Both the position numbers and the translations under genes were made by a program. Shown piece after piece: positions 1,254 to 8,449 of a stretch of 8,449 nucleotides of DNA. The notes beneath the pieces are model-generated. The model saw only the letters and a list, made by a program, of their open reading frames with translations. It was not told the DNA's origin and did not search any database. The DNA is from a virus (Duplodnaviria; Heunggongvirae; Uroviricota; Caudoviricetes), in IMG/VR virus record IMGVR_UViG_2617270967_000016, positions 1-8,449 of that record, one strand, 5' to 3'. The first letter of the stretch is position 1, and each line of letters opens with the position of its first letter.

Positions 1254-1322
1254 AAAATGATTAGTGCGGTCCGCAAAAAGTATGTCAGTATGTTAAGAGT
1301 GGTTACTTCGCCACACAGCTTA
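1254..1322 (+). promoter_or_regulatory. expected location of late promoter PR' and qut site
   Basis: By lambdoid architecture PR'/qut lie between the Q stop and tR'; I could not pick convincing -35/-10 hexamers, so this is positional only. Confidence 0.3.
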
Positions 1323-1347
1323 AACCCGCCGCGAGCGGGTTTTTTTA
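1323..1347 (+). terminator. rho-independent terminator (tR'-like)
   Basis: GC-rich hairpin cccgccgcgagcggg (1324-1339) followed by T7 (1340-1346). Confidence 0.6.
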
Positions 1348-1468
1348 TGGCTGAAATCGGTCCAGTACAGTAAACGTGCTGGTGGCGGTGAATACCTGTC
1401 TTTCAGCTTGCTGGCTTTTTCGACAAGAGTTATTGGTGTGTCACGTTAACCGGAAAAGGGAAAAAGAC

Positions 1469-1666
1469 ATGCTAAAACAGCAGGATATGACAGAAACCGC
1501 CAGAGTGGTGTTTAATGAATTAAGCGTTAACGACCCGGCGACAGTCGGGGAGATTGCGCAGAATACTTACCTTTCACGCGAACGCTGCCAGTTAATACTG
1601 ACCCAGCTGGTTATGGCGGGTCTGGCAGACTATCAGTTCGGTTGTTACAGACGCCTTCCGCAGTGA
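1469..1666 (+). CDS. small winged-helix protein, PapI/FaeA-like (65 aa), function unknown
   Basis: ATG 1469 with AAGGGA about 7 nt upstream; ...TVGEIAQNTYLSRERCQLILTQLVMAGLADY resembles the recognition helix/wing pattern of PapI/FaeA regulators (from memory); stop lies inside a terminator hairpin. Confidence 0.5.
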   Translation: MLKQQDMTETARVVFNELSVNDPATVGEIAQNTYLSRERCQLILTQLVMAGLADYQFGCYRRLPQ

Positions 1667-1680
1667 AGGCTTTTTTATTT
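1653..1680 (+). terminator. rho-independent terminator after the small wHTH ORF
   Basis: Stem gccttc (1653-1658) / gaaggc (1665-1670), 6-nt loop, then TTTTTTATTT (1671-1680). Confidence 0.5.
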
Positions 1681-1693
1681 GTGGTAAATGGGC

Positions 1694-1724
1694 GGCTGGT
1701 GGGTGTTAGGGGCACCCACCAGCC
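1694..1724. repeat. perfect 12-bp inverted repeat (hairpin or palindromic binding site)
   Basis: ggctggtgggtg (1694-1705), loop ttagggg, cacccaccagcc (1713-1724); no following T-tract, so not a classic terminator. Confidence 0.5.
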
Positions 1725-1816
1725 ATCTGCTCATGCGTTGGGTTCACAAGCAAACCTCAGGCCCACTGCTTTGCGCAAAAGCAGAATGAGCCTATCAGAG
1801 ACAGGCTTAATGTTCC

Positions 1817-2866
1817 ATGCTTAATACTGTAAAAATATCCAGTTGTGAGTTAATCAACGCCGACTGCCTGGAATTTATCCGGTCGTTACCCGAAAATTCT
1901 GTTGACCTGATAGTCACGGACCCGCCGTACTTTAAAGTGAAGCCTGAGGGCTGGGATAACCAGTGGAAGGGCGACGATGATTACCTGAAGTGGCTGGAGC
2001 AGTGTCTGGCGCAGTTCTGGCGGGGGCTGAAACCTGCCGGAAGTCTTTACCTGTTCTGTGGTCATCGCCTGGCATCTGATATCGAAATCATGATGCGTGA
2101 ACGCTTCAGTGTGCTGAACCATATTATCTGGGCGAAGCCGTCCGGACGCTGGAACGGATGCAACAAGGAAAGCCTGCGGGCGTATTCCCCCGCCACAGAG
2201 CGCATTCTGTTCGCGGAACATTATCAGGGGCCGTACCGCCCGAAAGATGATGGCTATGAGGCGAAGGGCAGGGTACTGAAACAGCATGTGATGGCCCCGC
2301 TGATTGCTTACTTTCGTGATGCGCGAGCTGCCCTGGGGATAACGGCAAAACAGATTGCAGATGCCACAGGAAAGAAAAACATGGTGTCGCACTGGTTCAG
2401 TGCCAGTCAGTGGCAGCTACCGAACGAAAGCGATTATCTGAAATTACAGTCGCTGTTTGCCCGGGTGGCAGAAGAGAAACATCAGCGCGGTGAACTGGAA
2501 AAGCCCCACCACCAGCTGGTGGATACGTATACGTCACTGAACCGGCAGTATGTGGAGCTGCATAGTGAATATAAGCATCTGCGGCGGTATTTTGGTGTGA
2601 CGGCGCAGGTGCCGTACACGGATGTGTGGACACATAAACCGGTGCAGTTCTATCCCGGGAAACATCCGTGCGAAAAACCGGCAGAAATGCTGCAGCAGAT
2701 AATCAGCGCGAGCAGTCGTCCGGGTGACCTGGTTGCAGATTTTTTTATGGGCTCAGGTTCAACGGTAAAAGCGGCACTGGCGCTCGGGCGTCGTGCGATT
2801 GGCGTTGAACTGGAGACCGGACGTTTTGAGCAGACAGTCAGGGAAGTTCAGGATTTAATCGTTTGA
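1817..2866 (+). CDS. orphan beta-class DNA amino-methyltransferase (N6-adenine or N4-cytosine)
   Basis: 349-aa ORF; motif IV DPPY near the N-terminus (LIVTDPPYF) and motif I FxGxG near the C-terminus (DFFMGSGST), the beta-class order; no adjacent restriction endonuclease ORF. Confidence 0.85.
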   Translation: MLNTVKISSCELINADCLEFIRSLPENSVDLIVTDPPYFKVKPEGWDNQWKGDDDYLKWLEQCLAQFWRGLKPAGSLYLFCGHRLASDIEIMMRERFSVLNHIIWAKPSGRWNGCNKESLRAYSPATERILFAEHYQGPYRPKDDGYEAKGRVLKQHVMAPLIAYFRDARAALGITAKQIADATGKKNMVSHWFSASQWQLPNESDYLKLQSLFARVAEEKHQRGELEKPHHQLVDTYTSLNRQYVELHSEYKHLRRYFGVTAQVPYTDVWTHKPVQFYPGKHPCEKPAEMLQQIISASSRPGDLVADFFMGSGSTVKAALALGRRAIGVELETGRFEQTVREVQDLIV

Positions 2867-2878
2867 AACGGATGAGAT

Positions 2879-2907
2879 TGCAGAATTAATTACGCACCAT
2901 TATTATT
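2879..2907 (+). promoter_or_regulatory. candidate sigma70 promoter for the tRNA cluster
   Basis: -35 TTGCAG (2879-2884), 17-bp spacer, -10 TATTAT (2902-2907); predicted start falls within a few nt of the first tRNA 5' end. Confidence 0.4.
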
Positions 2908-2915
2908 CTGCTCCC

Positions 2916-2991
2916 GGCCCTTTAGCTCAGTGGTGAGAGCGAGCGACTCATAATCGCCAGGTCGCTGGTTCAAATCCAGCAAGGGCCACCA
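2916..2991 (+). tRNA. ileZ: tRNA-Ile2 (anticodon CAU; would score as Met by anticodon alone)
   Basis: 76-nt cloverleaf: acceptor GGCCCTT/AAGGGCC, D-arm GCTC...GAGC, anticodon loop CTCATAA, T-loop TTCAAAT, encoded CCA; resembles E. coli ileX and Stx-phage ileZ. Confidence 0.8.
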
Positions 2992-2998
2992 TCACATA

Positions 2999-3075
2999 CC
3001 GCCATTAGCTCATCAGGAAAGAGCGCCAGCCTTCGAAGCTGGTTGCGCGGAGTTCGGGTCCCCGAAGGCGGTTCA
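2999..3075 (+). tRNA. argN: tRNA-Arg (UCG)-like, degenerate (possible pseudo-tRNA)
   Basis: D-arm GCTC/GAGC and anticodon arm CCAGC-CTTCGAA-GCTGG fold well, but the acceptor and T stems each carry a mismatch, the T-loop is TTCGGGT (no A58), and the 3' end is TCA not CCA. Confidence 0.45.
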
Positions 3076-3088
3076 TTATCTGTATCCT

Positions 3089-3165
3089 GCGTTGTTAGCT
3101 CAGCCGGACAGAGCAATTGCCTTCTAAGCAATCGGTCACTGGTTCGAATCCAGTACAACGCGCCA
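3089..3165 (+). tRNA. argO: tRNA-Arg (anticodon UCU, reads AGA/AGG)
   Basis: 77-nt cloverleaf: acceptor GCGTTGT/ACAACGC, anticodon arm ATTGC-CTTCTAA-GCAAT, T-arm ACTGG-TTCGAAT-CCAGT, discriminator G, encoded CCA. Confidence 0.8.
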
Positions 3166-3179
3166 CACTTATTTTCCCT

Positions 3180-3205
3180 GGCTCGCTTTTGCGGGCCTTT
3201 TTTTT
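3180..3205 (+). terminator. rho-independent terminator after the tRNA cluster
   Basis: Stem ggctcgc (3180-3186) / gcgggcc (3191-3197) with one G-U pair, loop tttt, then T8 (3198-3205). Confidence 0.6.
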
Positions 3206-3402
3206 AAATGTCTCACAATTCAGACGGTTGACAGTTGTCTGTTTTGCGGGGAGTTTGTTAAAAGAAACTGGCATGGTGAATCCCCCTGTGCGGAGGGGCA
3301 ATCAGCGAGTAGGTATATGGGATAATCGCGGATTCAGGTGCTGGTACTGAATTCACCGGGAGGCACCCGGCACCATGCAATGGCACATAGCGCCACTCTC
3401 CA

Positions 3403-3426
3403 GCCCCTCTCCGGAGGGGCTTTCTT
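3403..3426 (+). terminator. rho-independent terminator-like hairpin
   Basis: gcccctc (3403-3409), loop tccg, gaggggc (3414-3420), then TTTCTT. Confidence 0.45.
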
Positions 3427-3430
3427 ATGG

Positions 3431-3460
3431 ACAAAAAAGCCCGCGCAGGGAGACGCGGGC
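3431..3460 (-). terminator. minus-strand terminator-like hairpin (convergent with 3403-3426)
   Basis: gcccgcg (3439-3445) / cgcgggc (3454-3460), 8-nt loop; A6 at 3433-3438 on + gives a U-tract after the hairpin on the minus strand. Confidence 0.4.
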
Positions 3461-3653
3461 GGCAAGGAATAAACAACAAAACGTGAAGTAATATTTCAGC
3501 TGGCGAATAATATCCGACAGTAATCACTCTGCGCAATAGTGCGGCCTTTTTCGTATTGCGGGCTGTTGTCTCTCTTCTGCCATTGTCCTGTAACTTCCGG
3601 ACTTCAGCCCGCTCCTCATTTTACTCACAATATTATCCCGGCCGGGAGGATTC

Positions 3654-3947
3654 ATGGCATTTAAACACTATGATGTTGTCAGGGCGGCGTCGCCGTCAGA
3701 CCTTGCGGAAAAGCTGACACACAAACTGAAAGAGGGCTGGCAGCCATATGGCGGACCGGTTGCCATTACGCCGTACACACTGATGCAGGCGGTGGCTATT
3801 GAAGGAGATCCACAGGTCGGCCCTTCATCTGAGCCGGACTGGTTCTACGTGGTTGTGCTTGCCGGACAGTCCAACGGCATGGCCTACGGTGAAGGGCTTC
3901 CGTTATGGCTGCATTCAGGATGCGGACGCACAGCGCGAAGGTATTAA
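3654..3947 (+). pseudogene. 5' fragment of a NanS-p-like sialate O-acetylesterase (N-terminal domain plus start of SGNH/SASA domain); homology ends near 3902
   Basis: ATG 3654 with GGGAGG RBS; about 70-aa N-terminal domain then VVVLAGQSNGMAYGEG, a block-I GQSN motif; the ORF then reads out of frame through capsid-gene sequence to a stop at 3947. Confidence 0.55.
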
Positions 3948-4077
3948 CGCCTCTGCCCGCTACCCGAAAAACTGGGTGACCACCGGCGATCCGGCGCGTG
4001 AGTTCACCATGATTCAGTCAGCACCGCTGATGCTGCTGGCTGATCCTGATGCGTTCGTGTCCGTACAACTGGCGTAA
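3901..4077 (+). pseudogene. E: 3' remnant of major capsid protein gene E (last 57 codons)
   Basis: Translation YGCIQDADAQREGINASARYPKNWVTTGDPAREFTMIQSAPLMLLADPDAFVSVQLA matches the recalled lambda gpE C-terminus almost exactly; no upstream E sequence; different frame from the esterase fragment. Confidence 0.8.
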
Positions 4078-4079
4078 TC

Positions 4080-4106
4080 ATGGCCCTTCGGGGCCATTTT
4101 CTCTCT
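4080..4106 (+). promoter_or_regulatory. stem-loop with UUCG tetraloop and U-rich tail between the E remnant and FI
   Basis: atggccc (4080-4086), loop ttcg, gggccat (4091-4097), then TTTCTCTCT; likely mRNA-stabilising or partial-terminator structure. Confidence 0.35.
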
Positions 4107-4118
4107 GTGGAGGAGTCC

Positions 4119-4514
4119 ATGACGAAAGATGAACTGATTGCCCGTCTTCAGGTGCTGGGTGAGCAACTGAACCGTGATGTCAGCCTGACGGGGACGAAAG
4201 AAGAACTGGTGCTCCGTGTGGCAGAGCTGGAAGAGGAGCTTGATGACACGGATGACGCTGCCGGTCAGGACACATCTGTCAGCCCGGAAAATGCGCTGAC
4301 CGGACATGAAAATGAGGTGGTATCAGCGCAGCCGGATACCGTGATTGATACGGCTGCTCTGGTCACGGTCGTGGCACTGGTGACGCTGCATACTGATGCA
4401 CTTCACGCCACGCGGGATGACACTGTGGCATTTGTGCTGCCGGGAACGGCGTTCCGTGTCTCTGCCGGTGTGGCAGCTGAAATGACAGAGCGCGGCCTGG
4501 CCAGAATGCAATAA
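4119..4514 (+). CDS. FI: DNA-packaging protein FI
   Basis: ATG 4119 after GGAGGAG; MTKDELIARLQVLGEQLNRDVSLTGTKEEL...VAAEMTERGLARMQ matches recalled lambda gpFI over its whole length. The track start at 4080 is an upstream extension. Confidence 0.88.
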   Translation: MTKDELIARLQVLGEQLNRDVSLTGTKEELVLRVAELEEELDDTDDAAGQDTSVSPENALTGHENEVVSAQPDTVIDTAALVTVVALVTLHTDALHATRDDTVAFVLPGTAFRVSAGVAAEMTERGLARMQ

Positions 4515-4525
4515 CGGGAGGCGCT

Positions 4526-4996
4526 GTGGCTGATTTCGATAACCTGTTCGATGCTGCCATTGCCCGCGCCGATGAAACGATACGCGGGTACATGGGAACG
4601 TCAGCCACCATGACATCCGGTGAGCAGTCCGGCGCAGTAATACGTGGTGTTTTTGATGACCCTGAAAATATCAGCTATGCCGGACAGGGCGTGCGCGTTG
4701 AAGGCTCCAGCCCGTCCCTGTTTGTCCGGACTGATGATGTGCGGCAACTGCGGCGTGGAGACACGCTGACCATCGGTGAGGAAAACTTCTGGATAGACCG
4801 GGTTTCGCCGGATGATGGTGGAAGCTGTTATCTCTGGCTCAACCGTGGGCAACCACGGGGATTTACAACGATTTGGCCGCCGCCTCAGCCTGTATGTGAA
4901 CACGGCAGCGGAAGCCATTCGCGCCCTGTCGATGCAGATGCCGGGCTTTCGCCTTCAGATGAACGAAGGCTGGTACCAGATACGTATTGCCGGTGA
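4526..4996 (+). CDS. FII: head-tail joining protein FII with its C-terminus replaced by read-through into the I region (disrupted)
   Basis: GGGAGG RBS; first about 105 aa match recalled lambda gpFII (MADFDNLFDAAIARADETIRGYMGTSAT...SPDDGGSC.LWL); after about 4850 the frame continues out of frame through I-homologous DNA to 4996. Confidence 0.7.
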   Translation: MADFDNLFDAAIARADETIRGYMGTSATMTSGEQSGAVIRGVFDDPENISYAGQGVRVEGSSPSLFVRTDDVRQLRRGDTLTIGEENFWIDRVSPDDGGSCYLWLNRGQPRGFTTIWPPPQPVCEHGSGSHSRPVDADAGLSPSDERRLVPDTYCR

Positions 4997-5477
4997 AGAC
5001 ACGGCACCGGAGGTGGTGTACGCCCGCCTTCACGAACAGCTGGGTGAGGGAACGGTCATCCACATTGTGCCGCGACTGGCCGGGGCCGGAAAGGGTGGAC
5101 TGCAGATTGTGTTGGGGGCGGCAGCCATCGTGGGCTCTTTCTTCACGGCCGGAGGCTCGATGGCGTTATGGGGTACAGCCCTGAGTGCCGGTGGTTTTTC
5201 TGCCACCACGATGCTGTTTTCACTGGGTGCCAGCATGATACTGGGCGGTGTGGCCCAGATGCTGGCCCCGAAGGCAAAAACACCGGATTACCGCGCAACG
5301 GATAACGGCAGACAGAACACGTACTTTTCCTCGCTGGATAACATGATTGCCCAGGGGAACCCGATGCCGGTGCCTTACGGGGAAATGCTGGTTGGCTCCC
5401 GCCGTATATCCCAGGACATCAGCACCCGTGATGAAGGCGGGGGCGGAAAGGTCGTGGTTATCGGGCGGCAGGGGTAA
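4812..5477 (+). CDS. I: tail assembly protein I, native N-terminus missing (first 16 codons derived from FII DNA)
   Basis: From GDLQRFGRR onward matches recalled lambda gpI to the C-terminus (…NTYFSSLDNM.AQGN…YGEM.VGSR…VVVIGR); the in-frame ATG at 4812 lies in FII sequence. Confidence 0.78.
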   Translation: MMVEAVISGSTVGNHGDLQRFGRRLSLYVNTAAEAIRALSMQMPGFRLQMNEGWYQIRIAGEDTAPEVVYARLHEQLGEGTVIHIVPRLAGAGKGGLQIVLGAAAIVGSFFTAGGSMALWGTALSAGGFSATTMLFSLGASMILGGVAQMLAPKAKTPDYRATDNGRQNTYFSSLDNMIAQGNPMPVPYGEMLVGSRRISQDISTRDEGGGGKVVVIGRQG

Positions 5478-5482
5478 AAAGA

Positions 5483-5581
5483 ATAAAAAAATCCCGCAGT
5501 GATCGCGGACAGGAACTGCGGGAGAGTTACGAAGATTAAGTGTAAGGAATTATTCTTATATCACGACAAAAAAATTAACGC
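5483..5581 (-). ncRNA. candidate small RNA (about 100 nt) between I and J
   Basis: Delimited on the minus strand by a near-consensus promoter (5588-5615) and a hairpin plus U-tract terminator (5486-5520); no start-codon-initiated ORF inside; this intergenic block is absent between I and J in lambda. Confidence 0.3.
5486..5520 (-). terminator. minus-strand rho-independent terminator
   Basis: tcccgcag (5491-5498) / ctgcggga (5513-5520), 14-nt loop; on the minus strand followed by ATTTTTTTATTCTTTTT. Confidence 0.45.
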
Positions 5582-5587
5582 AGAGAA

Positions 5588-5615
5588 ATTATACGCGCCA
5601 CGGTCAGTTTGTGAA
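5588..5615 (-). promoter_or_regulatory. sigma70-type promoter on the minus strand
   Basis: Minus-strand -35 TTCACA (+ coords 5610-5615), 16-bp spacer, -10 TATAAT (+ coords 5588-5593, perfect); AT-rich upstream; predicted start near 5581. Confidence 0.45.
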
Positions 5616-5690
5616 AATGTGAAGATATTCAGAATTTTTATGCCATTACCGGTTTTAACCAACAGGATTATCGGTGGGCATGAAAGAAAA

Positions 5691-5723
5691 CCCCGGTATC
5701 TGCTGATACCGGGGTTTCTCTTT
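5691..5723. terminator. bidirectional rho-independent terminator
   Basis: Perfect 10-bp stem ccccggtatc (5691-5700) / gataccgggg (5705-5714), loop tgct; TTTCTCTTT downstream and GAAAGAAAA upstream. Confidence 0.6.
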
Positions 5724-5820
5724 AGCATGGCAGAAATGTGTTTCATGCTTTTCGGGCGAAGGATATCCGACTTCTGTACGGAATGGCAAGTGGCGGTTAA
5801 TTTATTCAGGGGAAGGCTGT

Positions 5821-6621
5821 ATGGGAAAAGGTGGCGGTAAGGCACACACGCCTCGTGAGGCGAAAGACAATCTCAAATCCACGCAGATGATGAGCGTGAT
5901 TGATGCGATTGGTGAGGGACCGATAGAAGGCCCGGTGAAAAGCCTGCAGAGTATTCTGGTGAACAAAACCCCGCTGACGGACACGGACGGTAATCCCGTG
6001 ATACACGGTGTGACCGCGGTCTGGCGTGCCGGGGAGCAGGAGCAGACACCACCGGAAGGCTTTGAGTCCTCCGGCTCTGAAACTGTACTGGGTGTCGAAG
6101 TGACCAGGGCAAAACCGGTAACACGCACCATTACGTCAGCGAACATTGACCGCCTGCGGGTGACCTTCGGGGTGCAGTCACTGGTGGAGACCACGTCAAA
6201 GGGTGACCGTAATCCGTCCTCTGTCCGTCTGCTGATTCAGTTACAGCGTAACGGTAACTGGGTGACAGAAAAGGATGTCACCATTAACGGCAAGACCACC
6301 TCACAGTTCCTGGCCTCGGTGATTCTGGATAATCTGCCTCCCCGCCCCTTTAACATCCGGATGGTCAGGGAGACGGCGGACAGCACCACGGACCAGCTGC
6401 AGAACAGAACGCTGTGGTCGTCATACACCGAAATCATCGATGTGAAACAGTGCTACCCGAACACGGCCATTGTGGGGATGCAGGTGGATGCGGAGCAGTT
6501 TGGTGGTCAGCAGATGACGGTGAACTACCATAGCCAGGTAACACAGAGTTATGACAGCCCGCCGGTTCTGGTGGGCTTTTTTGTGGGGGGAATATGTCAG
6601 TACAGATTTCAGGTGTGCTGA
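5821..6621 (+). pseudogene. J: tail tip/host-specificity protein J, N-terminal about 238 codons only
   Basis: RBS AGGGGAAGG; MGKGGGKAHTPREAKDNLKSTQ...PPRPFNIRM...TLWSSYTEIIDVKQCYPNTA matches the recalled lambda gpJ N-terminus; homology ends near 6533 and the ORF stops at 6621; full J is over 1100 aa. Confidence 0.8.
6557..6582 (+). terminator. terminator-like hairpin immediately upstream of the stf start
   Basis: gcccgcc (6557-6563) / ggtgggc (6570-6576) with one G-U pair, loop ggttct, then T6 (6577-6582). Confidence 0.4.
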
Positions 6622-7832
6622 AGGATGGTACAGGAAAACCGGTACCGGACTGCACCATAGAGCTGAAAGCCACGCGAACGAGTGAGACGGTGATAGTCAC
6701 CACGGTGGCAGAGCACCAGCCAGGCGAAACGGGCAGTTACAGCATGCAGGTTGAGCCGGGGCGTTATCGTGTGACCTTGTGCGTGGAAGGTCGTCAGCCG
6801 GCATGCGCCGGCGAGATTGATGTCATGGCCGACGACGAACCGGGCACCCTGAATGCCTTTCTGCTCCGTGAAACGGATGCAGCGTATTATCCTGATGCAC
6901 TGAAGAAGCTGGAAGCGGCGGCGGATGAGGCTGTGCGCAGGGCGCGAGAAGCTGCTGAGAAAGCCGAAACTGCCGTGGGGCCACAGGGACTGAAAGGCGA
7001 CACCGGAGCAACTGGTCCACAGGGACAGAAGGGGGACAAGGGCGATACAGGCCCGGCAGGGCCACCGGGGCCGAAAGGGGATAAAGGTGACAAGGGCGAT
7101 AAGGGGGATACAGGTCCGAAAGGTGAGCAGGGCGATCCGGGCGGACCACAGGGACCGAAGGGCGACAAGGGGGATACAGGCCCGGCAGGGCTTCAGGGGC
7201 CAAAAGGGGATACGGGAGCCGCAGGCCCGGCAGGGCCTCAGGGGCCAAAAGGGGATACGGGAGCCGCAGGTCAGGCAGGGCCTCAGGGGCCAAAAGGAGA
7301 TACGGGAGCCGCAGGTCCGGCAGGACCTCAGGGGCCAAAGGGAGATACGGGAGCTGCAGGCCCGGCAGGACCTCAGGGGCCAAAAGGAGATACGGGAGCC
7401 GCAGGTCCGGCAGGACCTCAGGGGCCAAAGGGAGATACGGGAGCTGCAGGCCCGGCAGGACCACAGGGGCCAAAAGGGGATACGGGAGCCGCAGGTCAGG
7501 CAGGGCCTCAGGGGCCAAAAGGAGATACGGGAGCCGCAGGTCCGGCAGGACCTCAGGGACCGTCAGGAAGTCCTGACAGCGGACTGTTTGGTGTCGGTTC
7601 TTTTGTCCTTGCGGCATATTATGCGACGAGTTATTCGGGGGATATGGCACCGGGCTCAGCCATTGCCGGCTCATCACTGTCTGCATGTTGCCTTTCGAAT
7701 GGTACTCCCCTGGTTGCTTCCGGTAATGTGGGGGAGACCCGTTTACCGGGCACGTGGCGTGCATGTGGTCCGATGCTATGGACATCATCTCCGGGTATCA
7801 GACAGGCAGGATTATTTCAGCGCATATCATAG
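6594..7832 (+). CDS. stf: side tail fibre protein with a collagen-like Gly-X-Y region
   Basis: 412-aa ORF; N-terminus [17 protein letters not shown] resembles recalled lambda Stf ([17 protein letters not shown]...); residues about 129-327 are uninterrupted Gly-X-Y triplets; 85-aa Cys-containing non-collagen C-terminus. Confidence 0.8.
7180..7560 (+). repeat. tandem array of a 45-bp unit (about 8 copies) encoding [15 protein letters not shown]
   Basis: Near-identical 45-bp units with only synonymous or single-residue variation (PAG/QAG); preceded by more degenerate [12 protein letters not shown] triplets from about 6978. Confidence 0.85.
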
Positions 7833-7840
7833 AGGAGGTC

Positions 7841-8449
7841 ATGGTGGATAAGGGAAAAGAGATTCTTGCAGTACGAAATGCAGCCAGCAACGAATATGGC
7901 GGGATAAACTGTGAGGTGCAGTTTGAAGACGCGGTGAATGAAAAAGGGGAACAGGTATGGCTGCCGTATACTGCAACGGAAACGGATAATACAGAACACG
8001 GAAAAGCATTGTGGTCTGGGCTGACAGCAGGAACGTACGGAAGCGTGAGTGCCTTTGTTGCCACGGAAGCAGTACTGGAAGCGGCAAAGGCGGCGAAACG
8101 GGAAGAGATTAATATCTGGCGTGATGTGCAGGAGAATATGGAATACGTGATGGAATTCAACGGAAGGAACTGGGATTACGGCAAGAAGACGTTGTCCAGG
8201 ATAAGCACGACACGCCTGATGGCAGAGAATAACCGTCTTCCGGAAGGTTTTGCCTGGACCGACGGGGATAATAATGTGGTGCCGGTGACGGCGGCGGAGA
8301 TAATTGCGCTGGCAGATGCGACAGAGCAGGCGATGTTTGCGAAGGGAGTGGAGATTAATACACGGCAGTTGCAGATGAAAGCCGAGGTTGAGGCGCTGAC
8401 AGACCTGAAGGCGATCCGCAGTTATGCTGTCGGATGGCCTGCTGGCTGA
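7841..8449 (+). CDS. putative tail-fibre-associated protein (assembly chaperone or distal fibre component), 202 aa
   Basis: ATG 7841 just after GAGGAGG (7832-7838) and 9 nt after the stf stop; stop TGA is the last codon of the window; function inferred from position only. The track start at 7754 overlaps stf. Confidence 0.55.
   Translation: MVDKGKEILAVRNAASNEYGGINCEVQFEDAVNEKGEQVWLPYTATETDNTEHGKALWSGLTAGTYGSVSAFVATEAVLEAAKAAKREEINIWRDVQENMEYVMEFNGRNWDYGKKTLSRISTTRLMAENNRLPEGFAWTDGDNNVVPVTAAEIIALADATEQAMFAKGVEINTRQLQMKAEVEALTDLKAIRSYAVGWPAG

Follow-up and report, generated by a model that had tools for sequence, protein, structure and literature searches.

An essentially homology-free join between a NanS-p-type esterase gene and capsid gene E in a defective lambdoid prophage of Escherichia coli

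INTRODUCTION

Several chromosomal lambdoid prophages of Escherichia coli, such as DLP12, Rac and Qin of K-12 and the defective Sp prophages of O157, have lost blocks of late genes by internal deletions, and in these cryptic elements truncated structural genes lie beside intact accessory genes encoding tRNAs, methylases and tail-fibre proteins. The degeneration of 'grounded' prophages through the loss of harmful or useless genes is a described model (PMC6379469). DLP12 is reported to keep its lysis cassette (PMC7918800). The esterases of the NanS-p type, including NanS-p of 933W and vb_24B_21 of phi24B, consist of a DUF1737, a SASA and a C-terminal domain and are encoded between the tRNA genes and the holin gene; both this three-domain layout and the genomic position have been described (PMC10462455). 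In phage lambda, the major capsid gene E is followed by FI.

Here, we analyzed a stretch of DNA of 8,449 nucleotides (the window) in which fragments of an esterase gene of this type and of gene E are fused. Like the cryptic prophages, the element is a chromosomal lambdoid prophage that lacks blocks of late genes and carries truncated structural genes next to intact tRNA, methylase and tail-fibre genes. It differs from them in that its set of scars is found only in a handful of near-identical draft assemblies and in 0 of 5426 complete E. coli genomes, and in that the states before and after the last deletion are both available, with zero SNPs in the flank. Unlike DLP12, it has lost the lysis cassette. 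Its esterase fragment is 100% identical over 84 residues to a full-length protein that has the domain order of NanS-p and is encoded between the tRNA and holin genes of lambdoid prophages, whereas the window keeps just the DUF1737 domain and the GQSN block and has no upstream stx operon. Its capsid remnant corresponds to the last 57 residues of an E of lambda type and is followed by an intact FI as in lambda, but 83% of the gene, including the start codon, is missing, and it is no longer a capsid gene.

RESULTS

Gene content and surroundings of the window

The window corresponds to positions 162–8610 of contig JNRW01000053.1 (assembly GCA_000704885.1) at 100% identity. ORF, Pfam and tRNA scans revealed the late half of a lambdoid prophage, which begins at the left end with YbcO, RusA and YlcG, followed by Q. 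Outside the deletion scars, the features are:

873–1253, + strand: antiterminator Q, 126 aa (Pfam Phage_antitermQ, E 1.6e-52; positions 1034–1414 of the source contig)
Between Q and the methyltransferase gene, strand not given: TrmB-like ORF, 65 aa (ORF and Pfam scans)
1817–2866, + strand: intact DNA methyltransferase, 349 aa (Pfam N6_N4_Mtase, E 2.2e-44)
2916–3165, + strand: three tRNA genes, CAT (Met/Ile2 type), Arg-TCG and Arg-TCT (ARAGORN)
4119–4514, + strand: intact FI, 131 aa (Pfam Packaging_FI, E 3.6e-49; tblastn 98.5% over residues 1–132)
4896–5477, + strand: intact tail assembly gene I, 193 aa (Pfam Lambda_tail_I, gene call)
6594–7832, + strand: side tail fibre with collagen-like repeats, 412 aa (Pfam phage_tail_N, Collagen)
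7778–8449, + strand: DUF4376 tail-fibre-assembly-like gene (Pfam DUF4376)

A terminator-like hairpin directly after Q (1322–1342) is a candidate tR'. The exact methyltransferase allele was found on the source contig only, among 153 billion gene positions; STEC-type prophages frequently carry near-identical alleles, with ~99% DNA identity. In a sister assembly, the contig ends within this gene at 2641, a hint that the genome in question has a further, partial copy of it. The same tRNA cluster is annotated in relatives as tRNA-Ile, Arg, Arg. Stx phages carry stxAB between this cluster and the esterase gene; in the window, stx is absent from that spacer, which measures just 488 nt. Terminator-like hairpins lie in it at 3180–3197, 3402–3421 and 3529–3544.

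To the right of FII, the segment 4854–6532 matches the K fragment, I and J contiguously at 98.6% in a complete genome. We considered whether the spacer between I and J (5478–5820, 343 nt) was an insertion, and rejected this given its contiguous matches of 97–98.6% and its identical length in strain S1-CAM-01-A. The collagen-like (G-X-Y) region of the tail fibre (6978–7560) varies among the assemblies, giving proteins of 412, 442 and 397 aa and a gene call of 427 aa reaching the end of its contig. Variants of 412 and of 442 aa were both seen in a deleted as well as in an undeleted assembly, and this variation suggests repeat slippage or differing assembler paths through two similar fibre genes. 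A 321-aa antisense ORF (6823–7788) is a by-product of the fibre repeats.

In the source contig, the right end of the prophage with its adjoining chromosome reads tfa–YkgJ–potB–potA–pepT–roxA–phoQP–purB, and the tfa–YkgJ–potB junction is common to 16 complete genomes. One of the relatives used below, S1-CAM-01-A (NZ_CP145714.1, 2728620–2775607), has a full prophage of ~47 kb between potB and potC, whose right end is shared with the element of the window; an NgoMIV-type restriction-modification pair and an S49 protease gene with a frameshift are also found in it. The right flank of the second junction-bearing contig, JNRX01000020.1, is different (5900–8988 of L005/L011, as against 8611–10110 of the source contig, L004/L010), with an integrase adjoining yfdC–mlaA–fadL, which we take to be the argW/CPS-53 locus on the K-12 map. 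The two contigs are 94–97% identical from the collagen repeats onward. Either two prophages recombined via their fibre genes, or one of the contigs is chimeric in the repeat.

The esterase gene is joined to gene E at a shared dinucleotide

A sequence-only reading of the window had proposed a deletion junction within 3880–3910, in which an esterase frame runs past its GQSN motif into E sequence in a different frame and only the last 57 codons of E remain. All of this was borne out by our alignments. At base level, the last esterase-homologous base is 3905 and the first E-homologous base is 3904, so that the junction can be placed at 3904–3905. The features at the join are:

3654–3905, + strand: 5' remnant of a NanS-p-type (SASA family) esterase gene, 84 of 617 codons, start ATG at 3654
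3904–3905, no strand: breakpoint of deletion 1, the dinucleotide TA common to both parents
3906–3947, + strand: out-of-frame tail of the esterase ORF, 13 codons from E DNA with the stop at 3945–3947, making a fusion ORF of 97 aa (ORF list, BLASTP)
3904–4077, + strand: 3' remnant of the lambda-type major capsid gene E, last 57 codons at 3904–4074 and stop at 4075–4077

On the left, window 1269–3905 aligns to the Q–methylase–tRNA–esterase region of E. coli O104:H4, with the final 365 bases 100% identical, and on the right, window 3904–4839 matches the E–FI–FII region of strain S51 at 98.6%. A megablast search of 5426 complete E. coli genomes returned no record spanning 3300–4600. The left-hand matches, annotated as 'SASA family carbohydrate esterase' and 100% identical in O104:H4 genomes, all stop at 3905, and the right-hand matches, which cover E–FI–FII at up to 99.6%, all start at 3904.

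Near the breakpoints, just 14 of 80 positions are the same in the parental sequences. A repeat scan together with the alignments found no filler DNA, IS remnant, flanking repeat or hairpin at the join. Since 16% of random joins would show 2 bp or more of microhomology, the 2 bp observed here are at chance level and do not point to a particular joining mechanism. The join is thus essentially homology-free and connects the interiors of two unrelated genes. The two reading frames are one base apart, a codon of the esterase frame starting at 3903 and one of the E frame at 3904.

Both truncated genes are reduced to fragments

The ORF at 3654–3947 is preceded by the native Shine-Dalgarno sequence of the esterase, GGGAGG, at 3643–3648, and its residues 1–84 are identical (84/84) to residues 1–84 of the 617-aa esterase of O104:H4 by BLASTP. 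In the full-length protein, Pfam places DUF1737 at residues 3–49, SASA at 66–262 and DUF6645 at 467–577. The fusion ORF retains DUF1737 complete (PF08410, residues 3–49 of 97, E 7.2e-17). Of SASA there remain residues 66–84, that is, 19 residues including GQSN (SGNH block I, encoded at 3864–3875), and the domain is cut 8 residues past this first catalytic block. Consistent with this, no SASA match was obtained in the fragment with Pfam, and the complete four-block SASA/SGNH catalytic domain is absent. The C-terminal carbohydrate-binding region (DUF6645/lectin-like) is absent as well, the full-length esterase query matching residues 1–84 only by tblastn. The 13 residues of the tail are unrelated to the esterase (BLASTP). 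The exact 97-aa sequence has no record among 15 billion proteins, and gene callers had not called the ORF. The context upstream of the esterase, with Q, the methylase gene and the three tRNA genes, is as in the relatives, and the holin side is deleted. Because the remaining SGNH blocks and the C-terminal carbohydrate-binding region have been deleted, the remnant is predicted to be incapable of enzymatic activity as a 9-O-acetyl sialate esterase. With its own ribosome-binding site retained, the 97-aa ORF could yield a DUF1737 polypeptide.

The E frame corresponds to residues 285–341 of the 341-aa E of S51 (BLASTP) and matches positions 275–328 of the 329 of the Pfam profile Phage_cap_E (PF03864). 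Of the 341 codons, the window contains 57, and a complete E (~341 aa) beginning at a start codon of its own is missing. The earlier statement that about 85% of E is gone was therefore right about the loss and slightly off in the figure, the 284 missing codons amounting to 83%. GenBank lists a 62-aa ORF at 3889–4077 (KDZ60649.1 and KDZ66868.1), which has a GTG start, takes 5 codons from esterase DNA and is without an obvious ribosome-binding site. Its annotation as a 'phage major capsid E family protein' is probably an artefact. The E tail has no credible start, and on sequence grounds both it and the esterase fragment are classed as pseudogenes.

We also considered whether short C-terminal fragments of E in other records point to a recurrent breakpoint. 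This was rejected: they are partial ORFs at contig ends that lack start codons, and not junctions. A strong terminator-like hairpin (4080–4097) follows the E stop directly and overlaps a listed ATG at 4080, upstream of the real FI start at 4119.

The missing interval contains the lysis, packaging and head genes

In the full-length prophages of strain 700462, O104:H4 and S1-CAM-01-A, the esterase gene, the lysis cassette, cos, Nu1/terS, A, W, the portal gene, C, D and E form one colinear element. We searched the window and 16.8 kb of the source contig by tblastn with proteins of two full-length relatives: the esterase, holin, YdfR, endolysin, Rz, small and large terminase subunits, W, portal, S49 protease, D, E, FI, FII, Z, U, V, G, T, H, M, L, K and I. 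Only residues 1–84 of the esterase, the C-terminus of E, FI, residues 1–110 of FII and I were matched, and there was no trace of the lysis cassette, terminase, portal, protease/scaffold or D. The proposed absence of these genes and of the rest of the esterase gene was accordingly upheld, and no intact E, lysis or terminase gene was found elsewhere in the 16.8 kb of the source contig. The window also lacks the lambda cosN sequence, GGGCGGCGACCT; since this sequence lies ~190 bp upstream of Nu1/terS in the full-length relatives, cos was lost too. Comparison with these relatives located the boundaries of the join and the missing block of genes, and the interval measured on them ranges from ~11.9 kb (strain 700462) to 13.2 kb (S1-CAM-01-A).

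Two further scars lie in the tail genes

The window is colinear with the prophages of S1-CAM-01-A, 700462, O104:H4 and S51 except for three gaps, of ~11–13 kb, 6969 bp and 3432 bp. The second and third gaps end the following remnants:

4526–4856, + strand: FII remnant, 110 of 117 codons (tblastn residues 1–110), ending at deletion 2
5821–6532, + strand: J remnant, ~238 of roughly 1130–1160 codons (Pfam FNIII-A_GpJ), ending at deletion 3

At deletion 2, FII homology extends to 4856 and K homology starts from 4854, with the trinucleotide CAC (4854–4856) shared. Relative to S1-CAM-01-A, 6969 bp are missing, which comprise Z, U, V, G, T, H, M, L and most of K. FII is joined to the last ~45 nt of K, and the resulting ORF runs out of frame to 4996 with a length of 156 aa; the 156-aa 'tail attachment domain protein' of GenBank is debris of this deletion and not a gene. 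At deletion 3, J homology extends to 6532 and homology to the lom–stf spacer starts from 6531, with TA shared. According to the base-level alignments, 3432 bp were lost, with J codons 239 to the end and lom. The remaining 266-aa J' ORF (5821–6621) extends past 6594, where the tail fibre gene starts. Neither of these scars occurs in any of the 5426 complete E. coli genomes, and the same is true of the esterase–E scar.

Given that holin, endolysin, Rz, cos, terminase, portal, protease, D, E and Z–K are missing, the element would be unable to lyse its host, to be packaged or to form particles.

Near-identical relatives retain E, D, the protease and terminase genes

Relatives were found by exact look-up of the 156-aa FII fusion ORF and the 266-aa J fragment, which returned seven contigs. 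The FII–K scar is common to all seven; two of them carry the esterase–E junction and four have an intact E. These four (L006–L009) are identical to window 3904–7149 except for one difference in L008, at 5567, and their other differences from the window are all in the collagen repeats. Leftward, they diverge from the window exactly at 3904 and continue into intact E, D, S49 protease (C), a 390-aa portal gene, A and Nu1, their contigs ending inside Nu1 or A. They share with the window the FII–K and J–stf scars. They also have a deletion of 586 bp between the end of A and the portal gene, with a 4-bp overlap (L006 2429–2432), which takes W and the first ~143 portal codons and leaves the portal of 390 aa.

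Attempts to trace the undeleted ancestor did not yield its left half: the exact methylase is present on the source contig only, and the contigs of the relatives end in Nu1 or A. RusA was tried as a tracer of this half and proved unusable, being too widespread (2524 blocks).

Based on parsimony and on the zero SNPs in the flank, the esterase–E deletion would be the latest of at least four, with the tail-gene, J/lom and W/portal deletions preceding it. The deleted and undeleted forms are identical over the 3.2 kb of flank that can be compared, and the identity of the relatives right up to the breakpoint supports a polarity from undeleted to deleted. The reverse, a 'repair' by recombination, is disfavoured because it would need a crossover to the right of 3904, which would normally import differences. 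As the undeleted relatives carry three other deletions with E, D, C, A and Nu1 intact, the element would already have been incompetent for particle formation before the esterase–E deletion. The lysis genes were presumably still present at that stage.

These relatives bear on the proposal of the sequence-only reading that one event removed lysis and packaging and thereby left the prophage unable to form particles. The loss of the lysis and packaging genes stands, but the disabling role assigned to it does not, in view of the four relatives that are already defective. That the loss was a single event is plausible given the clean join, which contains no filler, although the lost interval included at least one older deletion.

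Occurrence of the junction in two deposited assemblies

A second assembly, GCA_000704905.1, contains the 60-mer across the junction as well, in contig JNRX01000020.1; this contig is identical to window 2641–7462 and has the same junction. A 30-mer across the junction had no match in the GTDB species representatives, among which E. coli is represented by one genome. Both junction-bearing assemblies are short-read drafts from one project; they possibly derive from colonies of one stool sample and are perhaps not independent. Their GenBank proteins are assigned to E. coli strain 3-073-06_S3_C1, one name for two accessions, so that the source assembly or its sister is that strain, a phylogroup-A stool isolate. 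In a typing study of this series of isolates, strains 3-073-06_S3_C2 and 2-011-08_S3_C2 are listed as phylogroup A, ST43 (PMC8923075).

DISCUSSION

Our analyses argue that the junction is, with good probability, the scar of an illegitimate internal deletion in the late operon of a lambdoid prophage inserted between potB and potC. One break would have fallen 252 nt into the NanS-p-type esterase gene and the other 171 nt before the stop codon of E, and the ends would have been joined at the TA that they share. The ~11–13 kb lost in this way would have comprised the catalytic and C-terminal domains of the esterase, holin, endolysin, Rz, cos, Nu1 and A, together with the remnants of W and the portal gene, the protease/scaffold, D and 284 codons of E. 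Such a join may have arisen by illegitimate recombination, either microhomology-assisted end joining or replication slippage over the 2 bp. Judging from the gene content, late transcription driven by Q would no longer lead to holin, endolysin or Rz, so that lysis of the host would be lost, and without cos and terminase any remaining chance of packaging would have disappeared. Selection or drift may thereby have rid an already defective prophage of late genes that were harmful or of no use, in line with the degeneration model for 'grounded' prophages (PMC6379469).

Whether the deletion was positively selected as a 'disarming' step is a further matter, and we regard this as possible though rather unlikely. 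If it were so, a prophage with Q and a complete lysis cassette that makes no particles would, upon induction, kill its cell for nothing, and the deletion would have removed this liability. The 3-073-06_S3 isolates, which have the deletion, and the undeleted 2-011-08_S3_C2 type would then form a natural pair for measuring the fitness cost of the lysis cassette.

An alternative origin of the join would be recombination between two lambdoid prophages of one chromosome, in which the left and right halves derive from different elements and the scar marks a larger chromosomal deletion or rearrangement. The best matches in complete genomes indeed differ between the halves, being of the O104:H4 or 700462 type on the left and of the S51 or lambda type on the right. 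The exact methylase protein, moreover, is on no contig of the undeleted relatives, and the second junction-bearing contig stops within the methylase gene at 2641, which suggests another copy leftward in that genome. However, lambdoid phages are mosaic, and differing best matches of the two halves are therefore expected. The order and orientation across the join are exactly those of a single lambdoid late operon, and single prophages that combine a NanS-p esterase, a lysis cassette and a lambda-type Nu1–A through E do exist, one of them at potB/potC. A deletion between separate prophages would also take the chromosomal genes lying between them. We thus consider this origin improbable, and an internal deletion within one prophage remains our preferred reading.

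The sequence-only reading had itself named a chimeric join as what would overturn it. An artefact of assembly or library construction, with the join not present in the cells, would fit the origin of both junction records as short-read drafts from one project and the absence of the junction from the 5426 complete genomes and from every GTDB representative. The contigs of this family also differ in their path through the collagen-repeat fibre and in their right flanks (potB or intS/yfdC), and some of their joins are unreliable. Against this, a misjoin driven by repeats requires the parents to have a k-mer in common. Here they overlap by only 2 bp and agree at 14 of 80 positions nearby, which excludes such a misjoin and means that reads with the junction k-mers must exist. 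Two separately deposited assemblies arrived at the identical junction, the sequence is 100% continuous on both of its sides, and the same element has two further clean scars that are common to seven contigs. An artefact is accordingly very improbable. It is still less credible that the fusion was selected as a functional mosaic joint or new gene, for instance one encoding a stand-alone DUF1737 protein: the 97-aa ORF does have a complete DUF1737 and the native GGGAGG site in a Q-controlled operon, but the join is out of frame, cuts SASA 8 residues after its first catalytic block and adds 13 nonsense residues, the exact sequence is absent among 15 billion proteins and confined to one clone, and the event is too recent (0 SNPs) to show selection.

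A related prophage in another E. coli strain, E1433 (NZ_CM180511.1; 8317–11242 of locus L003), has the same order of modules, with one scar where the late-regulatory/lysis region meets the head genes and others in the tail genes. There, the join places a holin fragment directly in front of an intact E, Z–M are partly lost and L is frameshifted. Because the breakpoints differ, the decay of E1433 is a separate event, and such deletions recur in the same modules.

To conclude, the locus represents ordinary prophage decay, already known in kind, of which it is a new instance only. For annotation, the 62-aa 'capsid' and 156-aa 'tail attachment' entries of GenBank are debris, which matters little beyond that purpose. 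The sole unusual aspect is that near-identical sister isolates keep the state before the deletion, so that the steps can be ordered. The element thus provides a worked example of stepwise decay, with four clean scars that have little or no homology, in which the last step took the lysis cassette and cos from an already tail-less element. The pair of states before and after this step could serve tests of whether losing the lysis genes is an advantage in defective prophages.
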